Shown here: one piece after another, positions 19,057-54,443 of the stretch
Layout: every line of letters starts with the position of its first letter
Numbering within the stretch: position 1 is the stretch's first letter
IMG/VR virus record: IMGVR_UViG_3300032053_000011
Coordinates: 64,001-128,000 of that record
DNA length: 64,000 bases
Source: a virus
Strand: one strand, 5' to 3'
Position numbers and translations under genes: made by a program
The notes under the pieces: model-generated
The model's database searches: none
What the model saw: only the letters and a program-made list of their open reading frames with translations
What the model was told of the DNA's origin: nothing

Positions 19057-20663
19057 TGTCGGGGCGCATCCGTACCATCAAGCCGGAATTGATCGACGAT
19101 GAGAAGACCGCCTCACTGTCACACCTCGAGTTCCGGCTGTTCATCGCGTTCATTGTCACGGCGGACGACTATGGGAATCTTCGTGGCGAGCCTTCGATGT
19201 TGCGTGGACAACTGCTCTGGGCACTGGGTACGCCGGTCGCCGAGGTGGTGGCAGCGATGGACGTTCTCGAAGAGGTCGGATTGATCGACGCGTACATTGT
19301 CCGTGGTCAGCGTTACCTCCATATCGCGGGCTGGTCGAAGCATCAGAAGGTCGATAAACCGGGCAAGCCGCGCGTTCCGAGTCCAACCGATCCAGAGCGG
19401 ATTGAGGAGCGGCGCTGGAAGACGTACTTCATCCGGCTTGGCGACGATGGCCCGATTCGCATCGGCAAGACGATTCACATGGCGACCTGCATCACCAAGC
19501 TCCAGGCGACTGCCAGGGCTCCGTTGCAAGTACTGCGGGTCGTTGATGCAAACGTCGAGGCCGTTTGTCAGAAGCGGTTCAAGGGCTCGCGCACCGAAGG
19601 CGAATGGTTCGCGCCCACGCGCGAGCTGCTGGAGTACATCGCGACTGAACCGTTCGCCGACGACGTGCCGCCCGCTCCCATCGTGACGCCGGGTCAGGGC
19701 GAGCTGGTGCTTCGCCATCCGCCAGTCGCGCCGCCAGCTCTCGCAAAACCACCCGGACCCACAGCACCCCCCATCGGTGCGACGGCGCCCATGATGGCGC
19801 ATACCGGCACGCCGACTGACACACAAGTTCTGCCTGTGGAAACTACAGCGGAACCTGTTGCTGCGAGCGATTCGCGAATCATTCGCGAGACTCTCGCGAC
19901 TGACCTCCGACCTCCGACCCCGAATCCGACCACGACCACGACCGACCAGTCGAGCGGTCTGGTCGCCCCGGTTCCAGCGATCCCGATCAAGTCGCAGACC
20001 GAGACCCAGGCCGAGACGGACTCGCAACGCGAGGCGCGGCTCGAGCGCATCACTCGGAGCCTGACCGATCGCCAGCACGGCGATGGTGTCGACTGGACGG
20101 CCGAAGGGAATCGGCTTCGGAAGGAATCCAAGGGGCGGTTGCGGACGTCATGCAGTCCGGTGCAGGCCGAGGAATTCGGACGTGCGATGCGATCGCTCGC
20201 GGACCAGCATGAACGGCCAGCATCCGAGCTCGTGACCCTGCTCGCCGATCACGCTCGCGAAACGGACACGTGGGCATGGATGACCACATCGAATCCCGGC
20301 ATGGGGTACCTGCTGAGAAATGGTGCAGAGGCGCTCGTCGAGGCGATCGAGAAAGCGCTGGCCTGGGAAGCTGCTGGGAAGCCGGAGTCATCTGGCTCAG
20401 CGCCATCCAGCGGACCGTCCAACGCGCCTTCTGGGCCGACCAATGAGGAATATCTGACATCCTTGCGTGCCCGTCGGGCCGACGTCGCCGAGATGCGCGC
20501 GCCACGGCCGATGTCCGCGGAGGATACACGCGCCGCCGCAGAAGTAAGTCGTACGGCTCTTCAAAAGCTCCGCGCTGACCGAGCCGAGACAGATCGCATC
20601 GCGAACTATGCGCGCTTTGGTGAGGTGGCGCCTACGCTCAACCAGCCAACGGAGCCCAATTGA
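19056..20663 (+). CDS. Phage replication initiator-like protein with embedded degenerate T5orf172 domain
   Basis: N-terminal RIRTIKPE...RLFI......DD.G...YLHIAGWSKHQKVDKP; then YFI......IRIGKT...E....KRF...R.EGEWF; directly upstream of DnaB. Confidence 0.8.
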   Translation: MSGRIRTIKPELIDDEKTASLSHLEFRLFIAFIVTADDYGNLRGEPSMLRGQLLWALGTPVAEVVAAMDVLEEVGLIDAYIVRGQRYLHIAGWSKHQKVDKPGKPRVPSPTDPERIEERRWKTYFIRLGDDGPIRIGKTIHMATCITKLQATARAPLQVLRVVDANVEAVCQKRFKGSRTEGEWFAPTRELLEYIATEPFADDVPPAPIVTPGQGELVLRHPPVAPPALAKPPGPTAPPIGATAPMMAHTGTPTDTQVLPVETTAEPVAASDSRIIRETLATDLRPPTPNPTTTTTDQSSGLVAPVPAIPIKSQTETQAETDSQREARLERITRSLTDRQHGDGVDWTAEGNRLRKESKGRLRTSCSPVQAEEFGRAMRSLADQHERPASELVTLLADHARETDTWAWMTTSNPGMGYLLRNGAEALVEAIEKALAWEAAGKPESSGSAPSSGPSNAPSGPTNEEYLTSLRARRADVAEMRAPRPMSAEDTRAAAEVSRTALQKLRADRAETDRIANYARFGEVAPTLNQPTEPN

Positions 20664-22069
20664 CTCTGCAATCGATCCGCACCAACAAACCGGCTGAATT
20701 GGCTGTTCTCGGTGATGCGATGGCGCACAAGGGTGCCATCGCGATCCTGAAAGGAATCCTCGGCATAGAGGACTTCTACTGGCCCGAGAACAGTACCATC
20801 TGGGCAGCAATGGTCGCGCTCGAAGAGCGCGGAGTAAGCATTGACCCGGTCACTATTGCCGACGAACTACGAACGATTCGTCGGCTGAATACGGTCAGTG
20901 GTCTCGTCGACATCGAGACACTGAAGTACCACGCCGGACGGGACATCGATGCTGTGGAATCCCATGCCCGCATCGTGGCTGGCCTCGCGATGGCGCGCCG
21001 CATCGAGTCCACTGCGCAGTCCATCGCAGCGCTCGCCCTCGATCCGTCCATCGCCGTGCCGGACTTCGCCGACCGCGCGATCACAGCATTATCTGAGGCC
21101 ACCAAACAGCGGGATGTACGGGCGCCCGCAGCGATGATCGACATGGCTGAAGATCTTACGAAGCGCATCGAGCAACAAGCAGATGCTCCAGAAGGCATCA
21201 CCGGTGTTCCTTCCGGGCTTACTCAACTCGATGCCATCACGTCTGGTCTTCAGCCCGGGACGCTCGTGATCGTCGCGGCGAGACCAGCGATGGGAAAATC
21301 CAGCCTCGCGACGAAGTTGGTGAAGGCCTGCGCGGAACGCAACAACTCAGGCAACAAGGCCTCGCTGCTGTTCTCTCTCGAGATGCCCAACAAAGAGCAG
21401 TTCGAACGCATCGCTTGTGAGCAGGCCTCGATCGATGCGAAGAAGATCAAACGGCGGCAGTTGACTTCGGACGATATGACAGGGCTCACCAGCGCTTTGA
21501 ACTACGTCGCAACGTTGCCGATTTTCATCGACGATGACTCGTCCGTGACCCCGCAGGACCTGCGCGCCCGCGCTCTACGGCAGCATTCACGCACGCCGCT
21601 CGGCCTGATCGCCATCGACTATCTCCAGCTCATCATGCCTCCGCGCACGATGGGGCGCGACACACGTGAACGACAGGTTACCGTCATCGCCGAAGCGCTC
21701 AAGGCGCTGGCCAAAGAATTGAATATTCCGGTCGTTGCCCTCGCACAACTGAATCGATCACTTGAGGAACGGCCAGACAAGCGACCGCGGCTTTCAGATC
21801 TCCGCGAGAGCGGAGGACTGGAGCAATCCGCCGACCTCGTGCTCTTCATCTATCGGGACGACTACTACAATAAGGACTCGGCCGACAAAGGCATCGCCGA
21901 ACTCATTGTTGCGAAGCAGCGCGGCGGCGATACGAGCACAGCCTATGCGCGATGGATCGCAACGCTGACGCGCTTTCAGGATCTATCAGACGAGGAACTC
22001 GAAGAACTCGATAATCGCAAGGCGGCGCCAAATAACGTCGTGCCAATGCGGCCAAGGAACAGAGCATGA
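20660..22069 (+). CDS. dnaB: Replicative DNA helicase
   Basis: N-terminal domain (E.AVLG, DFY, IDPVT), AARPAMGKS, FSLEM, IDYLQL, AQLNR, DLRESGGLEQSAD and KQRGG. Confidence 0.95.
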   Translation: MTLQSIRTNKPAELAVLGDAMAHKGAIAILKGILGIEDFYWPENSTIWAAMVALEERGVSIDPVTIADELRTIRRLNTVSGLVDIETLKYHAGRDIDAVESHARIVAGLAMARRIESTAQSIAALALDPSIAVPDFADRAITALSEATKQRDVRAPAAMIDMAEDLTKRIEQQADAPEGITGVPSGLTQLDAITSGLQPGTLVIVAARPAMGKSSLATKLVKACAERNNSGNKASLLFSLEMPNKEQFERIACEQASIDAKKIKRRQLTSDDMTGLTSALNYVATLPIFIDDDSSVTPQDLRARALRQHSRTPLGLIAIDYLQLIMPPRTMGRDTRERQVTVIAEALKALAKELNIPVVALAQLNRSLEERPDKRPRLSDLRESGGLEQSADLVLFIYRDDYYNKDSADKGIAELIVAKQRGGDTSTAYARWIATLTRFQDLSDEELEELDNRKAAPNNVVPMRPRNRA

Positions 22070-22079
22070 GGGCAAGATC

Positions 22080-22940
22080 GTGAACGACAAATCGCAGTAT
22101 GGTGCATCAGACACGCCGGATGGCATCACCGGGATTCCATCCGGCCTCCGCCAGCTCGACAACATCACCGGTGGCTTCCAGCCAGGAACGCTCATCCTCG
22201 TCGCGGCGAAGTCAGCGATGGGCAAGAGCAGCTTTGGAACAAAGCTCGTGAGAAAGTGCGCGGAACGCACCAACGATGGCAAGAGCGCGTCGCTGCTATT
22301 CTCCATCGAGATGACAGGGGAAGAGCAGCACCTGCGCATTGTTTGCGAGGCAGCGTCGGTCGACGCGATGAGTATCAGGCGTGGCGACACAAGCGCACGG
22401 GCGTCGATGTTGGGCGCGGCGCGCTACGTCGCCACGTTGCCGATCTTCATCGACGACAATTCGTCCGTGACGCCGCAAGATCTCCGCGCACGTGCTCTTC
22501 TCCAGGACGCGCGCACGCCGCTCGGTCTGATCGTGATCGACAACCTCCATCTGATCCGTCCGCCGCGCACGATGAGCCAGAATACGATTGCCGAATCGCT
22601 CAAGGCGCTCGGCAAAGAACTCAACATCCCGATCGTCGCGCTCACACATTTGAATCGGTTCCAGGAGGACAGGCCGAACAGGCGTCCGGGGCTCTCGGAT
22701 CTGCCCGGTGACCTCGAGCAGTCCGCCGACGTCGTCATCTTCATCCACCGCGATGACTATGATGACAAGCATTCGTCAAACAAAGGCATCACCGAACTGA
22801 TCGTTGCGAAGCATCGCGGTGGCGAGACGAGCACCGCCTATGCGCGCTGGATCCCGACGCTGACGCGTTTTCAGGACCTCACCGACGAGGAGCTTGAGGA
22901 CATCGATACGAGCAGGTCAGCACGGAGGGGTTCGACATGA
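22080..22940 (+). CDS. Second, N-terminally truncated DnaB-like ATPase domain (tandem duplicate)
   Basis: Colinear with the C-terminal part of 20660-22069 at protein and DNA level; motifs altered (AAKSAMGKS, IDNLHL, THLNR, DLPGDLEQSAD, KHRGG). Confidence 0.85.
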   Translation: MNDKSQYGASDTPDGITGIPSGLRQLDNITGGFQPGTLILVAAKSAMGKSSFGTKLVRKCAERTNDGKSASLLFSIEMTGEEQHLRIVCEAASVDAMSIRRGDTSARASMLGAARYVATLPIFIDDNSSVTPQDLRARALLQDARTPLGLIVIDNLHLIRPPRTMSQNTIAESLKALGKELNIPIVALTHLNRFQEDRPNRRPGLSDLPGDLEQSADVVIFIHRDDYDDKHSSNKGITELIVAKHRGGETSTAYARWIPTLTRFQDLTDEELEDIDTSRSARRGST

Positions 22941-32233: not shown

Positions 32234-33793
32234 CTACTCGACATCGAGCGCTGCACTGCGCCCGCCGGAGCGCTCGGCTGCCTCGGGGGTGCTTGCCGGT
32301 CGCGCACGGCCCTTTGCCCAGGTTCGGAGCACCTCGAGCTTCTCGCTCGCGCTCTTGCTCTGCGGCACGACGTTCTTCGCGGCCTCGAGCAGGTCGGCCG
32401 AGGTGATCGCACGCTCGTTCTCGGCGAACGCCACGAACAGCGCATCGGGCACCAGGGCAGACAGCTCTGCGCCGGTGAATCCTGCGGTGGCGCGCGCGAC
32501 GCTGTCGATCTGGGCGTCCGGCGCGCGATCGTACTGACGAAGCGACGACGCCAGGATGGCGCTGCGCTCCACCGCGGTCGGCAGATCGAGGAAGAACACC
32601 TCGTCGAAGCGGCCCTTGCGCATTAGCTCGGGCGGCAGCGCGCGAACGTCGTTGGCGGTCGCGATCACGAAGACCGAACCGACCCGCTCTTGCATCCAAG
32701 ACAGTACCGCGCCAAGTGCATCGGCCGCCACGCCGCCGTCGCCCTGGGGCGAGGTGCTGCCGCCGAGCGCCTTCTCGATCTCGTCGAGCCAGAGCACGCA
32801 GGGGCTGACTGCTTCGGCCACCTGGAGCGCCTTGCGGATGTTGGCCTCCGACTCGCCGACCCACTTCGACTTGAGCGCGCCCATGTCCAGGCGCAAGAGC
32901 GGCATGCCCCAGGCGCTGGCGATGCACTTCGCCACGAGGCTCTTGCCGGTCCCGGGCGGACCGATCAGGAGCGCGCCCTTCGGCGCGGGCAGACCGAAGG
33001 CACGTGCGCGCGGCGAGAATGCCTGCTTGCGCGCGGAGAGCCAGTTCTTGAGCAGGTCCAGGCCGCCGACGGCCTCCATGCCGCGCGGATCCGGCTCGTG
33101 CCACGTAAGGACCTTCTCGCGAGCGATCACACGGCGCTTCTCAGCGCTGACGATCGCGGGATCGATCTTCTTGAGCGTGACGAGCGAACGTGCGTAGCAG
33201 TTGGCGGCTTCCTCCGAGGTGAGACCGACCGCCGCGTCGATCGCGGCCTCGCGGATCGGACCATCGGCGACCTTGTCGCGGATCTTCTCGGGGAGCGCCT
33301 CGATCACGTCCGAAAGAATCTGCGCGACCTCGGCACGGTCGGGGAGCGGATACTCGATCACCGTAGTATGGCCGGATAGCTCGGGCGGGACATCGCCGCT
33401 CGGCGTGAGGACGATGATCGTGCGGGCCACGTCGGAAGGCGCGCTTTGAAGCGACCGCGCGAGTGAACGTACGCCGCGCAGGACGACGGGATCCAACCAC
33501 TTGTGCAAGTCGCGCAGGACGTAGACACAACGCTCTTTGCTATCCCGGATGTAGTCGAGGACGGCGCTCGGGTCCTTGTCGCCAGAGACCTCCTCGCCCT
33601 CGAGGTCGGTGAGGCCAGTGGCGCAATCCCAGAACCGGGTCTCGTACTTCGCAACCGCGCACGCATCGGCGATCGCGCGTTCGACGCGCACTTCCTCGCG
33701 GGTGACGATCCACAACAGCGTGTTGCGCGCCTTGAGGAGCGCGGTGATGTCTGCGTTGGTCTTCTGTCCGCGGGTCTGGGTCTCGGTGGCCAT
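32234..33793 (-). CDS. Ycf46-like AAA+ ATPase
   Basis: LWIVTREEVR, VGGLDLLKNWL, GPPGTGKSL, WVGESEANIR, WLDEIEK and RKGRFDEVFFLDLP. Confidence 0.9.
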   Translation of the reverse strand: MATETQTRGQKTNADITALLKARNTLLWIVTREEVRVERAIADACAVAKYETRFWDCATGLTDLEGEEVSGDKDPSAVLDYIRDSKERCVYVLRDLHKWLDPVVLRGVRSLARSLQSAPSDVARTIIVLTPSGDVPPELSGHTTVIEYPLPDRAEVAQILSDVIEALPEKIRDKVADGPIREAAIDAAVGLTSEEAANCYARSLVTLKKIDPAIVSAEKRRVIAREKVLTWHEPDPRGMEAVGGLDLLKNWLSARKQAFSPRARAFGLPAPKGALLIGPPGTGKSLVAKCIASAWGMPLLRLDMGALKSKWVGESEANIRKALQVAEAVSPCVLWLDEIEKALGGSTSPQGDGGVAADALGAVLSWMQERVGSVFVIATANDVRALPPELMRKGRFDEVFFLDLPTAVERSAILASSLRQYDRAPDAQIDSVARATAGFTGAELSALVPDALFVAFAENERAITSADLLEAAKNVVPQSKSASEKLEVLRTWAKGRARPASTPEAAERSGGRSAALDVE

Positions 33794-33832
33794 GTGAGAA
33801 ACTCCTTGCCGGGGTCCGATCCCGACTCCCAG

Positions 33833-33861
33833 AGAATAGTGCACGGGCCGTGCGTCGTCAA
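33833..33861 (-). promoter_or_regulatory. Sigma70-type promoter with operator B (GCACGG-G-CCGTGC)
   Basis: Minus strand TTGACG-N17-TATTCT; palindrome 33841-33853 in the spacer. Confidence 0.8.
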
Positions 33862-33865
33862 GCCA

Positions 33866-34078
33866 TTACGAGCGTTTTCGAATACGCCGGTTCGGAATGA
33901 TCGTTTCCGTGCGGATTCCCCACTTGTCTTTCACGTGGTGCCAGCCTGGGAAAGCACGGGATGGCGCCACGTAGGTACCCGGCTCCCAGCTATTCAGCGT
34001 GATCGGCGGCGGCGGGTTCGCCCGGATGAACTCGATGGGATCGCCCTCGAGAAACGCCTTCACGAATGGCTTTCTCAC
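33866..34078 (-). CDS. Small hypothetical protein
   Basis: GTG 34078 coupled to the RNB gene stop. Confidence 0.5.
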   Translation of the reverse strand: MRKPFVKAFLEGDPIEFIRANPPPPITLNSWEPGTYVAPSRAFPGWHHVKDKWGIRTETIIPNRRIRKRS

Positions 34079-35895
34079 CGGCCGTCGCCGAGCACTCGGA
34101 TCATCTCGATCGCCGCGCCGCGCTTCGCGTCGATCTTGCTTCCGGCCCGGGCGTGGACAATCAGCTCGCGCACCTTGCACGCGCAGAGCATCACCGGAAT
34201 GTGCGGTGGACCGCTGACCTCGAACGTGTACGACGGCATCACGTTCTCGATCTGGCACCATTCCTGGAGTGTGGAGATGGGGTCCTTCGAGGGGTTCAAG
34301 GTCGGCACCGGCGCAGCGACGGGGACAGGCGCCGTCGGGCTCACCGGCGGACGCTCCATGTCCGCCTGGGGCACTGGCACGCCCGCCATGTTCGCGAGAA
34401 TGGCAACCGTCGCCAACTGCTCCGCGCGTTTCTTCTGCTTGGCACTGGCCTTCCCAGTCCACACAACACCGTCGATCGACACCGACGCAACGACCTCGAA
34501 CACCGGCACGGTACCGGGCGCGGTACTAGTGAGTTCGTATTGCGGCACGGTCCATCTCGGATCGAGCGACGCCGCCTGTGCGAGAGCGCTCACCGCATCC
34601 TCCGGGCGCTGAGCCAGCGCTGCGATGATGGCGGCGCGCATGGGCCGCCACGCATCGGTCATCGGCGCCTGCGTCAGGACGACCGTCATCGCCAAGAGTG
34701 GGGTCTTGTTCTCTCTGGTGCGAAGCAGGAACGCATCGGCGAACGCCGCGGACGGGTCGAGACCAGACCGGGCCTCGACCTTCGTCACTCGCTCGAAATC
34801 CTTGTGCGCGAGGCCATCGATCTGCCGAGCACCGATCGCGCGCGCGGCCTTCTGCTCGCTCTTCTCTTTCATCGCTCGAGATGTGGCAGCGTCCTCCGCC
34901 TTCATCACCGTCGCGATGTGCTCGGCGAACACCGTCATCTGATCCTTCGCGTAGAAGTGCGTGCCGTCTTTCAGCGCTCGGCGGATCTGGCGATGGTTGA
35001 TCAGATCCGCGTATCGTCGAATGGGAGAGGTGAAGTGCGTGTAGACCGGAAGGTTCAGCCCATAGTGGCCGAGCACCGAGCCGCCGTAAGATGCGCGGTC
35101 GAGCAGCAGATGCGTACGCTGACGGAGGGCATCGAGTCCCTGGAGCGGCGCAGTGATGGCGCCGCCGAGCTGTCGTTGTAACTCCGCCCGGTCAGGCGCC
35201 GCCGCGCGCGCGACGTGGTTGCGAAATAGGATCGGGATGTCTTGATCCACAGCCCAACGAGCGATCGCGCTGTTCGCGAGGATCATCAGCTCCTGGATGA
35301 GGATGTATCCGACGGTGGCGTCATGGCTCTCGATCCGTCGAAGGAATCCCTCCTCGCTGGCCACCCAGCCGTTGTTGAGGTCGTACAGGACGAAGGCTCC
35401 ATCCAACCGGCGCTTGTCGAGCAACGCTCGCGTGAGCGACGCCGCGGAGATCAACATGGCGCGATACGGCGGATCCATCTCTCCATTCAGGATCGCTGGG
35501 ATCTCTCGATAGGTGAGCTTCGCAAGGCTGACCAGGATCTCGTGCGACACGGTCACGTCTGTGTTCGTGAGGCTTTCTTTGTCGACGGCGATCGTCACCG
35601 CCAGCACGCGACGTTTCTGTCCAGGCCACAGCGAGATGTCCCCCTCACTCAGATCACGCCGAAGCATCGGGCTATTCCCCGAAGCGAAGTACCGCGTCTC
35701 GGCCATCACGCGCGCGCGCAGATCATCTTCGTCGCCATCCTTGACGAACGCAGCGACGTCCGCGATCGAAACGGTCACCTTCCATGCCGTCGCAGTCTCC
35801 TCGACCCAGATCGCATCGTCGATGTCGCGTGTCGAAGCGTCGTCGATCGTCAGCCCAGAGATCGTTGGCTCCCCATATACTTTCTCGGTCTTCAT
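34075..35895 (-). CDS. RNase II/R catalytic (RNB) domain fused to two dsRNA-binding domains
   Basis: TIDDASTRDIDDA, SIADVA, LIQELMILAN and HYGL....YTHFTSPIRRYADLINHRQI. dsRBD1: DAVSALAQ...P.YE...PVFEV...KQKKRAEQLA. dsRBD2: DPISTLQEWCQ....P.Y....SGPPHIP...SKIDAKRGAA. ATG 35895 is coupled to the upstream stop. Confidence 0.9.
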   Translation of the reverse strand: MKTEKVYGEPTISGLTIDDASTRDIDDAIWVEETATAWKVTVSIADVAAFVKDGDEDDLRARVMAETRYFASGNSPMLRRDLSEGDISLWPGQKRRVLAVTIAVDKESLTNTDVTVSHEILVSLAKLTYREIPAILNGEMDPPYRAMLISAASLTRALLDKRRLDGAFVLYDLNNGWVASEEGFLRRIESHDATVGYILIQELMILANSAIARWAVDQDIPILFRNHVARAAAPDRAELQRQLGGAITAPLQGLDALRQRTHLLLDRASYGGSVLGHYGLNLPVYTHFTSPIRRYADLINHRQIRRALKDGTHFYAKDQMTVFAEHIATVMKAEDAATSRAMKEKSEQKAARAIGARQIDGLAHKDFERVTKVEARSGLDPSAAFADAFLLRTRENKTPLLAMTVVLTQAPMTDAWRPMRAAIIAALAQRPEDAVSALAQAASLDPRWTVPQYELTSTAPGTVPVFEVVASVSIDGVVWTGKASAKQKKRAEQLATVAILANMAGVPVPQADMERPPVSPTAPVPVAAPVPTLNPSKDPISTLQEWCQIENVMPSYTFEVSGPPHIPVMLCACKVRELIVHARAGSKIDAKRGAAIEMIRVLGDGR

Positions 35896-37346
35896 GACTT
35901 CTCCTGGTACAGCGACACATGAACGAGCCCTGCGGATGGGCAGATGGAAACTCTGGTGCCAGCGGGGTATCGCGTACACGCTTTCGGCACGAGTACGATC
36001 GGGATGTTGCGCTCGAGCGCCACCTGGGCGAGATGAGCCAACGCGCCTCCGGCTTCGGTGATCACGCCCTTCGCAGACAGGAGAGACTCGAGCCGGTCTG
36101 GATGCAGATCGGGCAGAACGATGATGTCCGTCCCAACGACGCCGTAGACGTCTGCGCCGCCAACGAGCACGGCACACTCGAAGTTGCCGAGCCGTTCCTG
36201 GAGCTCGTACATCGTGTGGTCCGCGCCCTTGCAGACCTCGGAATCGGGGTTGTAGGCGTCTTCGATCGGGAGTCCCGCGCCGAGCCACCAATCCGTGTGG
36301 TACGGATCATCGTTTGTCATCTTCGTTCCAGAATGGGCGACACACTTCCATGCCGGAGCGAGGTGGCGCAGCGAGGTTCGGTGGAGTGCCCAGTTCATGA
36401 ACGGCGCACGCGGAACCGAAGCCACCACCTTGCCGCCCTCGGTGGTCACGTCGAGCATGTCGCCATTCGCACGCTCGATGACGCCGAGGCGAATGCGGTC
36501 GAGTTCGGCACGGTACTCCACCTCTTGCGCGTCTTCGCGTAGCGCTCGTTCCATGGCCACCGCGGACCGCGACGGCCGCGGCAGCTCTTCGTCCGAGTCC
36601 TCATCAGGTACTGACCTCGCGCGGTCGCCACAGCGTGCGCTCCAGCCCTCTTTGGTGAGCGTGCGGCCAGCGGCGAGAAAGTCGGCGAGCGCCTTCGTCG
36701 GCGTCGTGTTCTCGGTCCACCACACCGGTGGTTCGCCGCATGCCTCGAAGATGATGCAAGCTTCCCATGGGTCACGATCGGGGCGGTCGACTCGGCAGAC
36801 GCGATCGCCTTCCCCTGCATAGAACGAGACACGATCGTCGTAACCACGCTCTGTGATACCGCGTGTGCGGACACGTCTCGAGTTCGCGTGATCGGCATCG
36901 TCCGGGCCCAAGTCCATCACCTCCGCGCTCGGCCGCCACCATGTCCCGTCGATGCGGATGCGTCCCGCATAGAGGTATCGGACCTGCGCGATGTACTCGA
37001 GGTCATCGTCATCGGCGGCGTCCATGCCCGTCTCGTCCCCGACCAACTTCTGTCTGCCGTCGAGTAGCTCCGAAGCAACATGCTCCGCGGCGCCGGGCGG
37101 GCCGCCACCGAGGCCATCGACGATCAGACGCCATGCCTTTCCGGGCATGTCAGATAGGAAGATGTCGCGCGCCGCGCGGGTGAGATACTCGCCCGAGATG
37201 CGGAAGTGCGTGACCCCGCACCTGCGCTCAGCGGGCTCCGCTGTTTCCTGGCGCGCTACCGACGTCTTGTTCTTCTTCGTTCGCATTCGTATCCCCTGGT
37301 CGATTGTCTGCGCGCCCGTGGCTCCGCGATCGGAGCGCGAACTCAT
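35892..37346 (-). CDS. Unknown N-terminal region + PEP-utilising enzyme mobile (phospho-His swivel) domain
   Basis: IIVLPDLHPD......AKGVITEAGGALAHLAQVALERNIP...G.RV.I....G.V. Confidence 0.75.
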   Translation of the reverse strand: MSSRSDRGATGAQTIDQGIRMRTKKNKTSVARQETAEPAERRCGVTHFRISGEYLTRAARDIFLSDMPGKAWRLIVDGLGGGPPGAAEHVASELLDGRQKLVGDETGMDAADDDDLEYIAQVRYLYAGRIRIDGTWWRPSAEVMDLGPDDADHANSRRVRTRGITERGYDDRVSFYAGEGDRVCRVDRPDRDPWEACIIFEACGEPPVWWTENTTPTKALADFLAAGRTLTKEGWSARCGDRARSVPDEDSDEELPRPSRSAVAMERALREDAQEVEYRAELDRIRLGVIERANGDMLDVTTEGGKVVASVPRAPFMNWALHRTSLRHLAPAWKCVAHSGTKMTNDDPYHTDWWLGAGLPIEDAYNPDSEVCKGADHTMYELQERLGNFECAVLVGGADVYGVVGTDIIVLPDLHPDRLESLLSAKGVITEAGGALAHLAQVALERNIPIVLVPKACTRYPAGTRVSICPSAGLVHVSLYQEKS

Positions 37347-38729: not shown

Positions 38730-38759
38730 GGTATATATGCACGGGCCGTGCGGTGTCAA
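38730..38759 (-). promoter_or_regulatory. Sigma70-type promoter with operator B (GCACGG-G-CCGTGC)
   Basis: Minus strand TTGACA-N16/18-TATATA/TATACC; palindrome 38739-38751; 22 of 24 nt identical to 33840-33863. Confidence 0.8.
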
Positions 38760-38850
38760 GCGAGTCGAACGCTTTTCTCGTTCACCCCATGAACACGCAA
38801 GGCGCCTGGGCGGTCTTGCGCCGCGCGGGCGGGCGACCTACCAACGTCCG

Positions 38851-39183
38851 ATGAATCGCCGCCAGCGTCGAAAGAACGCACTGGGCGAGTTCGTCCAGTT
38901 CGGGTTCTCCGTCGACGGCTCGTTCGTTTCCGATGGGCTACGTGACACAGAGCCGTTCTGCGATGCGCTGATCGCTTTCGTGGAGAGCCGCGGACTCAGC
39001 TACGGTGGCAGCATCGACGCCTTCGGGATGGAGGGGTTCGTCGAGCGCTGGCGTCGGAACGAGCGTGGTCGTTGGAGCACGGTCACCAGCACCGATGCCG
39101 ATCGCGCTTTGGTCGGGCGCTGGTTGTGTGCTAGACAAGAGATAGCCAGCGTCGCTGTGGGTCCGCTGCGCGTGATCCGGTGA
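38851..39183 (+). CDS. yggL: YggL (DUF469)-like 50S ribosome-binding protein
   Basis: RRQRRK...GEFVQFGFSV, FVESRGL.YGG, T.ADRA.V..WL and VGPL. Confidence 0.75.
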   Translation: MNRRQRRKNALGEFVQFGFSVDGSFVSDGLRDTEPFCDALIAFVESRGLSYGGSIDAFGMEGFVERWRRNERGRWSTVTSTDADRALVGRWLCARQEIASVAVGPLRVIR

Positions 39184-41842: not shown

Positions 41843-41962
41843 CGTCCCAGACTGCTCGCTTCCACGCCAGAATGGTAGCGGTGACGGAACCGCCCCGGGC
41901 GCGTATCATGCGCGCGCCGCCGTTGACGCAGACCATACGACCGTGTTCAGCATGGTGTCGCG

Positions 41963-42700
41963 ATGCCCAACCCAATCGTGCACTGGCGCGACATCCTCAC
42001 GCTCGATTGGCCGCAGAACCCCAAGCCCTGGATCCTCCTGCCCGAGGGAGAGCGGTTGCCATCGGTCGTGATGTCGGTGGTCTGGGGCACCGTCTCGGAG
42101 GCACACGGACGCGCGCTCGAGTGCGGGATGCTGGTCAGCAGCGCCCGCGCGGCGGCACTCTCCGAACAACTTCAGCTCCTGGCGATCGACCTCTGCGAGA
42201 ACTGCATGGCGCATCGGTATTGCGTGCGGCTACTCCAGCGCGGCGATGAGTTCCGACGCCGGACGCTTCTTGCGGGAATGACCCGACCCGGCACCAGCGC
42301 CACCTGGGTGGGCGACCACGATCGCTTCATGCGCTTCGCGACAGCCCCGGCCGATCCGCCGCCTCCTCCATGGCGCACCGGCTTCGCGGACCCATATGGG
42401 TCGATGTGGGATAGCGGGAGATACGCCGACCGAGTCCGGGAAGCCATGGAGGACATGCATCGGCAGCGGCCACCCGGCCGAGCGATCTCGATACCGGCCG
42501 ACGAGCGCGAGGTGCGCAAGGCCGCCAAGACCCTCGGAGTTACCCTCCCCACGACGGTGGATGCAGTTCAAAAGGCCTGGAAGCGAAAGGCGAGACAGCA
42601 TCACCCGGATTCGCATCCCGACGGCAAGGATGGGTCGACAGAGAAAATGGTAGCTGTAAACGTCGCGCGCGACCTATTATTGCGTCACCTCCGCACTTGA
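41963..42700 (+). CDS. C-terminal J-domain protein
   Basis: AKTLGV.......VQKAWKRKARQHHPD......EKMVAVNVARDLL. Confidence 0.8.
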   Translation: MPNPIVHWRDILTLDWPQNPKPWILLPEGERLPSVVMSVVWGTVSEAHGRALECGMLVSSARAAALSEQLQLLAIDLCENCMAHRYCVRLLQRGDEFRRRTLLAGMTRPGTSATWVGDHDRFMRFATAPADPPPPPWRTGFADPYGSMWDSGRYADRVREAMEDMHRQRPPGRAISIPADEREVRKAAKTLGVTLPTTVDAVQKAWKRKARQHHPDSHPDGKDGSTEKMVAVNVARDLLLRHLRT

Positions 42701-42712
42701 AAGGCAAACCCA

Positions 42713-43108
42713 ATGGGTCTCCTCGATTACGTCCAGAAGTCCGTCCGCGTGGCCCAGGACGTGGCCGCCGCGGCAAAGCTGATCGCCGGAGCCGCCCCCG
42801 CGATGAAGTCAGCGATGGCGGACGTCGAGCAGGCTGCGAATCTGTTCCGCGGCGAGGCGCGCGTCGATCCGACCGCTGGCGGCGTCACCGATGGGATGAA
42901 CTACCCGCCCGAAGTGCTCCACGCGGCAGGCGTCCTGGGGCTCTCCCTGCCTGCTACGCGAGCCGATGTCGACGCTGCCTACAAGAAAGCAGCGAGGCTC
43001 GCACACCCCGATCGTCTGAACGGCGACACTGCCGCGATGGTGCGCGTAAATCGCGCAAAAGGAACGATGGTTCGCTATCTGGCACCTGTATCGGCTGCGC
43101 CGCGCTGA
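42713..43108 (+). CDS. C-terminal J-domain protein (second)
   Basis: AGVLGL.......VDAAYKKAARLAHPDR..GD...MVRVNRA. Confidence 0.8.
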   Translation: MGLLDYVQKSVRVAQDVAAAAKLIAGAAPAMKSAMADVEQAANLFRGEARVDPTAGGVTDGMNYPPEVLHAAGVLGLSLPATRADVDAAYKKAARLAHPDRLNGDTAAMVRVNRAKGTMVRYLAPVSAAPR

Positions 43109-52868: not shown

Positions 52869-54443
52869 ATGCTCAACGCGGCGGCCTTGGAAGCACGGAT
52901 TGGAACGATGCTGGCTGGCAAGTATCGGCTCGATCGAATTCTTGGCATGGGTGGCATGGGCGCGGTCTTCGACGCCGAGAACACATGGCTCACACGGCGG
53001 GTTGCCGTCAAGGTTATGCACCCCGACGTGAGTCGTGATCAGGCGCTCGTGGAGCGTTTCCTACGCGAAGCAAGAGCCGCCGCACGTGTGCATCATCCGA
53101 ATGTCGTCGACGTGCTCGACTTGGGGCAGGATGCCGATGGGACTCTTTTCATCGTGCAGGAATTCTTGCCGGGGACCGACCTCGAGCATCTGATGCGAGA
53201 TCGTGGGCCGCTTCCTCCGCGTGAAGCGCTCGAGATCATCGTGCCCGTGATGAGCGCGTTGATTGCTGCTCACCGCAGCGGCATCCTGCACCGCGACGTG
53301 AAGCCCGCCAACGTGCTCCTCGCGAATTCACCAGGAGGTGGTGTTGTCCCCAAGCTTCTGGACTTTGGTATCGCGAAGGTACAGGAGTCCGTCGCATCGA
53401 AGGACCTCACACAGACCGGCGTCGCACTCGGCACAGTGCATTACTTCTCGCCCGAGCAAGCCGCGGGCGCGCGCGACGTTGATGCGCAGACCGACGTTTG
53501 GGCCCTGGCAGTGATGTTGTACGAGATGCTCTCGGGACGCTGCCCCTGGGAAGGCGAGACGGTCAACCAGATCTTCGCAGCCGTGTTGACCGCAGAAGTG
53601 CCGCCGATTCAGTCGATCGCGCCGAACGTGCCCGATGCACTCGCGGCGGTGATCATGCGTGCGCTCGAGCGCGATCGGACGGTGCGCTTCCGTTCGATGC
53701 AGGAATTCCTTGGTGCTCTGCTCGACTGCCCGACGTTCGAGAAGGAGAGCTGGCACACCACTCTGCGGGTCACCCATCAGGCAGCCACTACATCGGTCGA
53801 CGGCCCAATCGAGATGGAGCGCGAACGCCGTGGGACGGACGTGCTGCAAGTGATGCCGAGCAAGGTAACGCCGCCACGCATGACTACGTTCGGCAGGACG
53901 GCGCGCGAGATCCTCGTCCCGTCGGACAACCATCTCGATACATCATCGCTCAGCGGATTCGTCGTGATGGCCGGGTTCCTGATGCTCACCGCATTCGGGA
54001 TGACCGCAATCGGTATTGCGTTTGGGATCGGTGGACTTGGCTCCCATGCCTCCGTCCCCGCGCCGCGTCCGGCTGCGACGTTCGAAGCGGTCTTCGATGT
54101 CCCCGGCGCCACGATCGAGATCGACGGTGTGCCGATGGGCACCGGTCATGTCGCCGTGGTGCTGCCGGTTGATGGCCGCAGCCATGTCGCGCGCTGCTAC
54201 GCCCCCGGACGTGTCGAACGTCGCGTGGAGTTTCGCAACCAGCTTCCGCCGGTTCGCATCGCGCTCGAGCCAATTGCGGTTCCGCCTCTCGTCGTGGAAC
54301 CACCGACGGCAGCGCCCACCATCATTCGCCATGTCCGGGCTGCGGCGCCAGTCGCGGTCCATCCGACGCCTCCACCGCCTGCCGCGGCTCATTCCGCAAG
54401 CCGCTCGCGCAATGGCGCACCGATCCTGGGGCTCGATGAATAA
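52869..54443 (+). CDS. Hanks-type Ser/Thr protein kinase with TM helix and PEGA-like extracellular domain
   Basis: LGMGGMGAV, VAVK, HRDVKPAN, DFGIAK, GTVHYFSPEQ and DVWALAV; TM segment; PGATIEIDG...G...APG. Confidence 0.95.
   Translation: MLNAAALEARIGTMLAGKYRLDRILGMGGMGAVFDAENTWLTRRVAVKVMHPDVSRDQALVERFLREARAAARVHHPNVVDVLDLGQDADGTLFIVQEFLPGTDLEHLMRDRGPLPPREALEIIVPVMSALIAAHRSGILHRDVKPANVLLANSPGGGVVPKLLDFGIAKVQESVASKDLTQTGVALGTVHYFSPEQAAGARDVDAQTDVWALAVMLYEMLSGRCPWEGETVNQIFAAVLTAEVPPIQSIAPNVPDALAAVIMRALERDRTVRFRSMQEFLGALLDCPTFEKESWHTTLRVTHQAATTSVDGPIEMERERRGTDVLQVMPSKVTPPRMTTFGRTAREILVPSDNHLDTSSLSGFVVMAGFLMLTAFGMTAIGIAFGIGGLGSHASVPAPRPAATFEAVFDVPGATIEIDGVPMGTGHVAVVLPVDGRSHVARCYAPGRVERRVEFRNQLPPVRIALEPIAVPPLVVEPPTAAPTIIRHVRAAAPVAVHPTPPPPAAAHSASRSRNGAPILGLDE

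Follow-up and report, generated by a model that had tools for sequence, protein, structure and literature searches.

A predicted RNB-helical-dsRBD-dsRBD ribonuclease of an uncharacterised family, encoded by a phage

The locus

The gene discussed here belongs to a large uncultivated phage from a sediment habitat, represented by the 137.5-kb IMG/VR virus contig IMGVR_UViG_3300032053_000011, whose completeness CheckV puts at 93. We analysed a stretch of 64,000 nt of this record, hereafter the window, and all coordinates below are positions in it. An earlier sequence-only reading of this DNA had placed the gene in a virus, and the record indeed carries RecT/RecE-like, DnaB-like, HNH and tail-J-like genes. 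Also encoded by the phage are a homologue of the 50S-binding protein YggL and a peptide deformylase. The gene of interest, P0001, and its two immediate neighbours are arranged as follows.

32234..33844, minus strand: downstream AAA+ ATPase, 536 aa (Pfam AAA; phrog_8638, E 8.5e-158)
34075..35895, minus strand: P0001, the RNB-helical-dsRBD-dsRBD gene, 606 aa, stop codon included
35892..35905, minus strand: translation start region of P0001 (AGGAG at 35905-35901, ATG at 35895-35893)
35892..37346, minus strand: upstream gene, 484 aa, with a C-terminal PEP-utilizers mobile domain (PF00391, E 1.8e-10; phrog_11532)

On translation the frame of P0001 runs for its 606 aa without internal stops, and its full-length homologues are 39-73% identical to it. 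The ATG is preceded by the AGGAG and shares bases, in an ATGA, with the TGA (35894-35892) that ends the upstream gene. A longer, TTG-started ORF that reaches to 36291 was rejected, because it overlaps the upstream gene and because the homologues begin, in the alignment, at the same point as the ATG of P0001, that is, at the RNB domain. Given this start coupling there may be a local functional link with the PEP-utilizers-domain gene, whose N-terminal part of about 400 aa was assigned to no family. On the other side the AAA+ ATPase follows 230 nt past the RNB gene. This spacer (33845-34074) has an RNA fold z-score of 0.30, no better than shuffled sequences, and no Rfam family was found in the window.

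Domain architecture of P0001

The protein can be divided into the following parts, all of which are encoded on the minus strand.

34969..35853, minus strand: RNB catalytic domain, residues 15-309 (Pfam PF00773)
35812..35850, minus strand: motif TIDDASTRDIDDA, residues 16-28, with the catalytic Asp residues D18, D24, D26 and D27
35011..35034, minus strand: motif FTSPIRRY, residues 288-295, which includes R293 and R294
34609..34947, minus strand: family-specific helical domain, residues 317-429, about 115 residues, from AlphaFold2 models
34384..34605, minus strand: dsRBD 1, residues 431-504, the second dsrm stretch, alpha-beta3-alpha in the models
34282..34383, minus strand: Pro/Ala-rich linker, residues 505-538, predicted disordered
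34084..34281, minus strand: dsRBD 2, residues 539-604 (Pfam dsrm 539-602)

Just 14 residues separate the start of the protein from the RNB domain, which matches PF00773 with E 6.1e-59 and 200.3 bits (cut-off 29.3) over profile positions 10-325 of 326. The sequence-only reading had described a catalytic motif near the start with its four Asp residues intact, a FTSPIRRY motif, and an RNB domain that lacks cold-shock (CSD) and S1 domains and is accompanied by two dsRBDs; all of this is borne out. None of the CSD, OB_RNB and S1 families of Pfam was found on P0001, even at E <= 1. Its catalytic residues align with the motif of E. coli RNase R, and we take the Asp and Arg residues to be equivalent to D201/D207/D209/D210 and R500 of RNase II. 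D201 and D210 are named in a review (PMC12320835). Each of D18, D24, D26 and D27 is kept in all 32 aligned family members, as is each of S290, P291, I292, R293 and R294. The presence of the four Asp and of R293 and R294 in 32 of 32 members points to selection on catalysis.

The C-terminal part gives two stretches of PF00035 (dsrm; E 2.2e-14; 54.2 bits, cut-off 23). In a six-frame search of the record the same family appears at window positions 34090-34281 and 34390-34548, with 39.6 and 23 bits, both over the cut-off. We obtained two AlphaFold2 models, with mean pLDDT of 86.3 and 90.8, and in these predicted structures alpha-beta-beta-beta-alpha units stand at residues 431-504 and 539-604 with pLDDT mostly above 85. 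The predicted domains match solved dsRBDs with Z of 9-12.8, so that the C-terminal segments are predicted to take the fold ascribed to them earlier. For dsRBD 2 the matches have Z of 11-12.8 and rmsd of 1.0-2.1 over 67-72 residues, among them the dsRBD of A. aeolicus RNase III (VIA Z 12.8, rmsd 2.1 over 72) and that of MLE (VIA Z 12.0, rmsd 1.0 over 70). Matches to the tandem dsRBDs of TRBP, R2D2, Loqs and MLE span both domains (model residues 112-287). The linker between them varies in length across the family alignment; its pLDDT is 45-48 in two blocks of residues 511-530 and below 50 at residues 514-527.

The two dsRBDs differ in the RNA-contact residues that they keep. We take the RNA-contact regions of such domains to be the helix-1 Glu, the loop-2 GPxH and the helix-2 KxxAK. 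Domain 2 keeps these canonical residues as E545, G562-P563-x-H565 and K587-x-x-A590-K591, and they are conserved in the family (E545 in 31 of 32 members, H565 in 27, and G562, K587 and K591 in all 32). Domain 1 keeps them only in part: K489 is present (29/32 in the family), while loop 2 reads APGT and not GPxH. At position 462 the family has His in 22 of 32 members and Thr in a single one, P0001 being of the Thr type. Because of this lost His, dsRBD 1 may bind RNA weakly, or it may bind protein instead; dsRBDs are also capable of protein-protein contacts.

Between the RNB domain and dsRBD 1 lies a further domain, which had escaped the sequence-only reading. It consists of a single long helix followed or flanked by four shorter helices; in the C-terminal AlphaFold2 model most of its pLDDT values are 82-98, and its conserved residues in the family alignment are F367-E368-R369, K372 and R376. 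No Pfam family was common to more than one of the nine members scanned for this domain, and a profile built from nine members found nothing better than E 0.14 among PDB sequences. A whole-library fold search of the C-terminal region returned mostly dsRBD matches and barely sampled the helical part.

Comparison with known ribonucleases

RNase II and RNase R are exonucleases that thread single strands, and their cold-shock and S1 domains set the choice of substrate; it is by this 'anchor' that a single-stranded 3' tail is normally fed into the channel. Judged by sequence, the RNB domain of P0001 resembles that of RNase R more than that of RNase II, with 191 bits against RNase R models and 112-125 bits against RNase II models. 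In detail, it scores 191.3 bits with TIGR02063 (cut-off 597.85) and 116.2 with NF008648 (cut-off 982), both RNase R equivalog models, and 112 with TIGR02062 (cut-off 641.9) and 125.4 with NF003455 (cut-off 542) for RNase II, each of these being below its cut-off. The closest solved relatives, by sequence and by Foldseek (E 1e-22), are the RNase R of E. coli (5xgu) and B. subtilis (8cdu), with best sequence matches of E 4e-27 and 1e-26. With these and other bacterial RNase R (Rnr/VacB, including 7dic of M. genitalium) P0001 shares the same four Asp and SPIRRY. The chemistry that would be expected of it is the same, processive hydrolytic 3'-5' exonucleolysis. On the other hand, the HTH, CSD1, CSD2, S1 and K/R-rich tail of RNase R are all missing, and the helical domain and the two dsRBDs stand in their place.

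A further difference concerns the 'tri-helix wedge' of RNase R, which is required for unwinding. The wedge region of P0001 appears shortened: the stretch mapped to it from the alignment has about 43 residues against 59, and it is modelled as two helices with pLDDT 64-76. Because this region is both shorter and modelled at such values, the ability of P0001 to unwind RNA is uncertain.

RNase II stalls at duplexes. With the E. coli enzyme (Rnb; 2id0, 2ix1) P0001 shares the RNB fold and the catalytic motif, but it lacks the CSD/S1 anchor and has duplex-binding domains. Its match to the D. radiodurans structure 2r7d is of E 1.4e-14, with a Foldseek E of 9e-18. According to the review PMC12320835, the RNase II-family protein of Deinococcus radiodurans and the RNase R of Haloferax volcanii have few or no OB-fold accessory domains. 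Zam, a cyanobacterial RNB protein, does not belong to the family of P0001, having CSD and S1 domains.

The dsRBD fold and the contact residues of dsRBD 2 are a likeness to RNase III and to TRBP, R2D2, Loquacious, MLE and Staufen, and with the eukaryotic tandem-dsRBD proteins P0001 further shares the arrangement of its two dsRBDs on a flexible linker. RNase III, however, is an endonuclease that cuts duplexes, whereas the nuclease of P0001 is a predicted exonuclease. The match of P0001 to TIGR02191 (RNase III) has 25.2 bits, below the cut-off of 166.25, and is limited to residues 430-501, which align with the dsRBD segment of the profile (positions 149-217); an RNase III catalytic domain is lacking.

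Distribution of the family

By its sequence and predicted folds, P0001 is a member of an uncharacterised family with the order RNB, helical domain, dsRBD, dsRBD. The sequence-only reading had asked whether this architecture might be common and already characterised. Common it is: all 119 best homologues have RNB and dsrm, and the C-terminal module forms 315 clusters at 50% identity. As to characterised, our literature search found no study of the combination of RNB, a helical domain and tandem dsRBDs. The family proteins carry the generic database annotation 'RNB domain-containing ribonuclease'.

The family is widespread in archaeal genomes, plasmids and huge-phage contigs and is not peculiar to this virus. 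Members occur in named genome records of Methanosarcina and Methanocella. At >=80% coverage they are also present on 46 plasmid records, among them plasmids of Rhodococcus, Streptomyces and Mycolicibacterium (RNB and dsrm in 4/4 examined), and further members lie on seven IMG/VR huge-phage contigs of 48-536 kb (RNB and dsrm in 6/7). In some members there is a third dsRBD, or PF16277 separates the dsRBDs. The members from Methanosarcina, from Methanocella and from plasmids, actinobacterial and other, are 29-44% identical to P0001 over the full length and have the same domain order; P0001 differs from them by its place in a phage and by details such as the lost His of dsRBD 1. Full-length matches were found in one or two of 401 sampled genomes of one phylum, and 2/401 is a lower bound, because the C-terminal module is too diverged for tblastn. 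Large plasmids and huge phages are the main carriers of the family, besides a few cellular lineages.

Among GenBank phages we found no full-length match to P0001, and none of the 40 records found by tblastn with the RNB part only covers >=80% of the query. By the same method, for which it is too diverged, the C-terminal module had no match in 50,697 phage records and two weak matches in plasmids. A single-protein search of IMG/VR found no close relative, and a metagenome scan gave one relative, L161, 43% identical. The phage RNB nucleases of phrog_13933, such as the 'putative ribonuclease' of Lactococcus phage Q54, do match P0001 (E 2.7e-53), but of the 677 positions in the profile just 226-583 are aligned.

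Genomic neighbours

We compared 13 window proteins, namely the RNB protein and 12 neighbours, with nine related loci by tblastn. The RNB protein was found in 9/9, whereas none of the 12 neighbours was found in any of the nine, except that the AAA protein matched over 41 residues of its P-loop region in one locus (L083). The Pfam contexts, too, differ among these nine loci and four plasmids. Seen from the other side, the AAA+ ATPase is 43% identical to gp96 of mycobacteriophage Corndog, which is without an RNB neighbour, and the upstream PEP-utilizers gene has no RNB neighbour in the phages that possess it and is missing from the nine related loci. A conserved operon or system with these neighbours is therefore rejected: the neighbours are not shared, and the AAA and PEP-utilizers genes occur elsewhere without an RNB neighbour. 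We also reject a known defence family, as the RNB protein was matched by none of the PADLOC models; for the AAA+ ATPase these gave generic AAA matches only (IetA, TRIP13).

Proposed function and alternative explanations

We think it rather probable that P0001 has 3'-5' exoribonuclease activity of the RNase R type and is tethered to duplex-containing RNA, and that it serves as a stand-alone accessory enzyme of RNA turnover. As the sequence-only reading proposed, it is reasonable to infer from the domain exchange that the nuclease has been retargeted to structured or duplex RNA, but for the particular targets named in that reading (crRNA, retron or antitoxin RNAs) we found no support. The helical domain and dsRBD 1 would form a rigid unit and dsRBD 2 a flexibly tethered one, and with these the enzyme would dock on A-form RNA helices, where the exposed RNB domain would digest a 3' end in or beside the duplex. 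In the phage its role may be the accessory turnover of duplex-rich RNA, that is, sense/antisense pairs of the element itself, stable host RNAs, or both. P0001 would act alone, outside any multi-gene system.

One may ask whether the substrate is rather bulk host RNA, with rRNA, tRNA and mRNA being degraded for host shutoff and the products feeding phage nucleic-acid synthesis. In three of the seven huge-phage loci thymidylate synthase genes are indeed less than 5 kb away from the gene, and a fourth locus has adenylosuccinate synthetase and a dNMP-kinase-like gene near it (L084, L086 and L087 are not independent, because they have several neighbours in common). It also speaks for such a role that a 30S-bound RNase R is among the best structural relatives and that the phage carries the YggL homologue and the peptide deformylase. 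Nevertheless, the family is carried by stable large plasmids and by Methanosarcina genomes, which fits bulk destruction of host RNA poorly, and no nucleotide-metabolism gene was found beside P0001 in the window. We regard this explanation as unlikely.

The enrichment on mobile elements (46 plasmid records and seven huge-phage contigs versus one or two of 401 genomes of one phylum) brings counter-defence to mind, in which the element would destroy structured RNAs of host immunity or sensing, such as CRISPR, retron or antitoxin RNAs or the RNA triggers of signalling systems. The plasmid copies are surrounded by small hypothetical genes, with HNH, Lsr2, mIHF or replication genes close by, and in three phage loci RNA-repair and ADP-ribosyl enzymes are nearby, which would agree with such a role. 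But PADLOC gave no match to a defence or anti-defence family, the nine related loci revealed neither a conserved partner nor a target locus, and the conservation of members across Methanosarcina and Methanocella records fits a general RNA enzyme better. The same holds for the copies in two bacterial genomes (L001 and L002), which adjoin housekeeping-type genes. In our opinion counter-defence is quite unlikely, and we are equally doubtful of a broader version, in which the family would be a duplex-seeking exoribonuclease of huge phages and large plasmids that erases the RNA duplexes or structured RNAs serving host immunity as guides, antitoxins or infection signals, or else the sense/antisense dsRNA of the element itself before the host senses it. 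Were such a weapon real, it would be the first anti-defence RNase that acts as an exonuclease and is defined by targeting through dsRBDs.

A catalytically silent RNA binder in which RNB fold and dsRBDs alike serve for binding alone, a pseudonuclease like yeast Ssd1 (which is among the Foldseek matches), has a precedent, as some RNB proteins have lost activity according to PMC10516660, but it is very improbable here, given all four Asp and both active-site Arg in P0001 and in 32/32 relatives.

Implications

P0001 does not represent a system of a new kind, being a lone gene that has no conserved partners and was generically annotated already. [quoted passage not shown] If its members are active as predicted, duplex RNA in prokaryotes would be subject to exonucleolytic attack beside that of the endonuclease RNase III, and the family could account for the way in which some mobile elements deal with antisense or structured RNA.

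The RNB gene and its product

The RNB gene lies exactly where the sequence-only reading had placed it. Read from the sequence, its ATG (35895-35893) shares bases with the TGA of the gene before it (ATGA), and an AGGAG stands before that ATG at 35905-35901. A longer ORF, starting from a TTG at 36291, was also considered. Because this extension runs across the upstream gene in a different frame and disagrees with the starts of the homologues, 31 of which begin in the alignment only a few residues from the RNB domain, we regard the short ATG form as the true gene.

34075-35895, minus strand: RNB gene, open reading frame, 606 codons and a stop

Both of the motifs that had been quoted are found in the translation, TIDDASTRDIDDA at residues 16-28 and FTSPIRRY at residues 288-295. 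Pfam places RNB at residues 15-309 (E 6.1e-59) and dsrm in two stretches (E 2.2e-14), and it returns no cold-shock, OB_RNB or S1 family even at E <= 1, which bears out the claim that the usual RNA-binding domains, CSD and S1, are absent. Among NCBIfam models, those of RNase R outscore those of RNase II (191 versus 112-125 bits), all equivalog scores being far under their cut-offs. The RNB part matches phrog_13933, 'nuclease', in PHROGs; PADLOC gives no match for the protein. When the whole record is searched in six frames, dsrm is matched in this gene only, twice, each time above cut-off.

Predicted structure

AlphaFold2 models built on a 32-sequence alignment reach a mean pLDDT of 86.3 for the whole protein and of 90.8 for residues 320-606 modelled alone.

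Predicted domains of the 606-aa protein (AlphaFold2 model)
Residues 11-310: RNB domain
Residues 317-355: single long helix
Residues 364-429: four more helices
Residues 431-504: dsRBD1, alpha-beta-beta-beta-alpha
Residues 505-538: linker, pLDDT <50 at 514-527
Residues 539-604: dsRBD2, a second alpha-beta-beta-beta-alpha

With Foldseek the RNB model resembles, at E values of about 1e-22 to 1e-20, the RNase R of E. coli, B. subtilis and M. genitalium, and the tail resembles the tandem-dsRBD proteins TRBP, R2D2, Loquacious, MLE, NF90 and DRB4 over 166-181 columns. In an alignment-independent fold search the top dsRBD match is RNase III of A. aeolicus (Z 12.8, rmsd 2.1 over 72 residues), and some fifty other dsRBDs follow at Z 9-12.4. 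Since both C-terminal segments are predicted to take the dsRBD fold and match solved dsRBDs at Z up to 12.8, the possibility that they do not adopt it appears, on these models, to fall away.

The helical domain between RNB and dsRBD1 is an element that the sequence-only reading did not mention. A profile of nine members has its best PDB-sequence match at only E 0.14, and the nine members scanned have no Pfam family in common. The domain is without a recognisable family, and the fold-library search barely covered this helical part. Its invariant residues are E368, K372 and R376, present in 32/32 sequences of the alignment, and F367 and R369, in 31/32.

In the same alignment the catalytic-site residues D18, D24, D26, D27, R293 and R294 are each conserved in 32/32. 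The canonical contacts of a dsRBD (helix-1 Glu, loop-2 GPxH, helix-2 KxxAK) are retained in dsRBD2 (E545 31/32, G562 32/32, H565 27/32, K587 and K591 both 32/32). The first dsRBD is less canonical: K489 is found in 29/32 and the loop-2 His in 22/32, the phage protein itself having Thr. According to an excerpted account of RNase R, a 'tri-helix wedge' of residues 487-545 is needed for unwinding. By our own mapping on the alignment with the E. coli enzyme, the equivalent stretch here is shorter, about 43 residues, and in the model it forms two helices with pLDDT 64-76.

Extent of the family

All of the 119 best homologues in a large protein collection carry precomputed RNB and dsrm domains (39-73% identity, 543-728 aa); the named ones, from Methanosarcina species and Methanocella conradii, are called 'RNB domain-containing ribonuclease' or 'exoribonuclease R'. 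The C-terminal 287 residues, scored against all representatives of 1.84 billion 50%-identity clusters, match 315 proteins at E <= 1e-3, 132 at <= 1e-10 and 33 at <= 1e-30, typically proteins of 580-630 aa aligned at about 310-600. Sixteen matches of odd length were inspected and are of four sorts: N-terminally cut fragments, dsRBD-only proteins, forms of ~885 aa with two dsrm stretches by Pfam, and proteins with PF16277 (DUF4926) between the two dsRBDs (in one of them, P0028, at residues 520-561). An SNF2-type helicase of 1439 aa (P0201) has an N-terminal stretch resembling the dsRBD module of the family. In the ESM Atlas there are several clusters, of 74-350 members each, in which 100% of members have RNB and 71-99% have dsrm, and the taxa recorded for them are chiefly Actinomycetota and Cyanobacteriota.

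The earlier remark that this architecture is not known from characterised proteins agrees with our search of the full-text literature, subscription journals and supplementary files being outside its scope, which turned up no description of an RNB enzyme that carries dsRBDs. Zam, an RNB protein of cyanobacteria, differs in having CSD and S1 domains, and the available portion of a review of cyanobacterial RNA decay does not mention the RNB-dsRBD architecture. The phage protein belongs to a widespread, generically annotated branch of the RNB superfamily, a branch that is apparently unstudied.

The record and the neighbouring genes

The DNA comes from a linear virus record of IMG/VR (137,514 bases, CheckV completeness estimate 93). 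The majority of the record's ORFs are unmatched, and no terminase, portal or major capsid gene was detected in its ORF set at the thresholds used. Its phage-type genes include recombination genes of RecT-like and RecE/YqaJ-like type, an RNase H and two adjacent DnaB-like genes, one of full length with the N-terminal domain (20660-22069, plus), the other a 286-aa C-terminal ATPase domain only (22080-22940, plus). There are also HNH endonucleases, a tail-J-like gene, a peptide deformylase, a eukaryote-like Ser/Thr protein kinase of 524 aa (52869-54443, plus; Pkinase E 7e-44 in Pfam; phrog_2361) and one tRNA-Ile(GAT) (41869-41938, minus). The latter is the sole tRNA gene of the window and adjoins two consecutive small proteins with DnaJ (J-domain) matches (41963-42700 and 42713-43108, plus). 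A homologue of the 50S-ribosome-binding YggL (38737-39183, plus; Pfam E 8e-15) and the deformylase, which lies in the other part of the record (L165:1001-1495, minus; phrog_2890), together hint at phage interference with host translation.

Neighbours of the RNB gene, all in one leftward block (order: 292-aa, 112-aa and 484-aa proteins, RNB, ATPase)
32234-33844, minus strand: AAA+ ATPase, 536 aa, 230 nt past the RNB gene; phrog_8638, E 8.5e-158
35892-37346, minus strand: 484-aa protein, C-terminal PEP-utilizers mobile domain (Pfam E 1.8e-10); phrog_11532
Leftward block: 292-aa protein; phrog_11021
Leftward block: 112-aa protein; phrog_11784

The ATPase matches its phrog nearly end to end and is 43% identical to gp96 of mycobacteriophage Corndog; its PADLOC matches (IetA, TRIP13) are limited to the ATPase core. 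The PEP-utilizers protein, a 'swivelling' phospho-His domain behind some 400 unmatched residues, shares 42% identity with a Virus Rctr197k protein and about 30% with Caulobacter phage proteins, and it also has a Vibrio phage homologue; that phages carry a swivel domain by itself suggests some phosphotransfer function. In the Corndog, Rctr197k and Caulobacter phage records compared, no RNB gene adjoins either homologue.

Twelve neighbour proteins of the window have no relatives in nine related loci, bar one P-loop match of 41 residues, and Pfam gene contexts vary between loci. Around the phage genes we find thymidylate synthases, adenylosuccinate synthetase, RNA ligase, a HAD_SAK_2 domain and ADP-ribosyl enzymes; on plasmids HNH, Lsr2, mIHF, DndC and replication genes amid hypothetical genes; on two bacterial chromosomes housekeeping-type genes. 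In huge-phage relatives, RNA-repair-type genes (HAD_SAK_2, RNA ligase) and ADP-ribosyl enzymes (ADP-ribosylglycohydrolase, PARP-like, DRAT-like) lie <5 kb from the RNB-dsRBD gene. Three of these loci (L084, L086, L087) are not independent, since several neighbours are common to all three.

RNA-repair and ADP-ribosyl neighbours in huge-phage loci
L083:10565-11167
L087:4519-5172
L084:10195-11157
L087:3337-4476

Because neighbours are not conserved and contexts differ, we conclude that the RNB gene stands alone and is no component of a conserved system. A counter-defence function of the family is in our opinion a minority reading, given that neither a conserved partner nor a defence signature was found for it.

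Where family members occur

RNB relatives are encoded in 153 of 354 candidate IMG/VR stretches, and only seven matches extend beyond the RNB domain (the huge-phage loci L081-L087, contigs of 48-536 kb; RNB and dsrm by Pfam in six). Among 50,697 GenBank phage records, 40 have RNB-only matches, none covers >=80% of the protein and none matches the C-terminal module. Plasmids match in 161 of 72,556 records, 46 of them over >=80% of the query, mostly in Rhodococcus, Streptomyces, Mycolicibacterium, Acaryochloris and Variovorax, and also on the megaplasmid of Methylorubrum extorquens AM1; all four plasmid members examined have RNB and dsrm. In 401 genomes drawn evenly from one bacterial phylum, the family profile gives RNB-type matches in 174, a tally that includes one unpublished genome (G320), on which none of our conclusions depends. 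Among the 150 matches listed, besides which there are 128 weaker ones, one only covers the whole profile; the C-terminal query alone, which is insensitive, matches in at least two of the 401.

In a quick maximum-likelihood tree of 44 rows, the viral ones fall in at least five places amid metagenomic rows that bear no label. A single starred, divergent clade unites the three actinobacterial plasmid rows, the Variovorax row grouping with it on a long, unsure branch, and Methanosarcinales form a separate clade. As most rows are without label, we claim no direction of transfer. That the family occurs in Methanosarcinales and on plasmids that are stably maintained speaks against a general role in the bulk destruction of host RNA.

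Possible mechanism and role

RNase R ordinarily requires a single-stranded 3' overhang, according to the part of the literature consulted, while the phage protein has dsRBDs and neither CSD nor S1; for this reason docking on helices is to be expected. With two dsRBDs and no CSD/S1 anchor, the RNB domain would dock on RNA helices and might then degrade 3' ends within or next to them. In our opinion the best explanation of the protein is such a helix-docking digester of nearby 3' ends, and we infer its activity, its tethering to dsRNA and its class of substrate alike. For a role in the phage, the candidate RNAs would be sense/antisense pairs of the element itself, stable RNAs of the host and those of its immunity.
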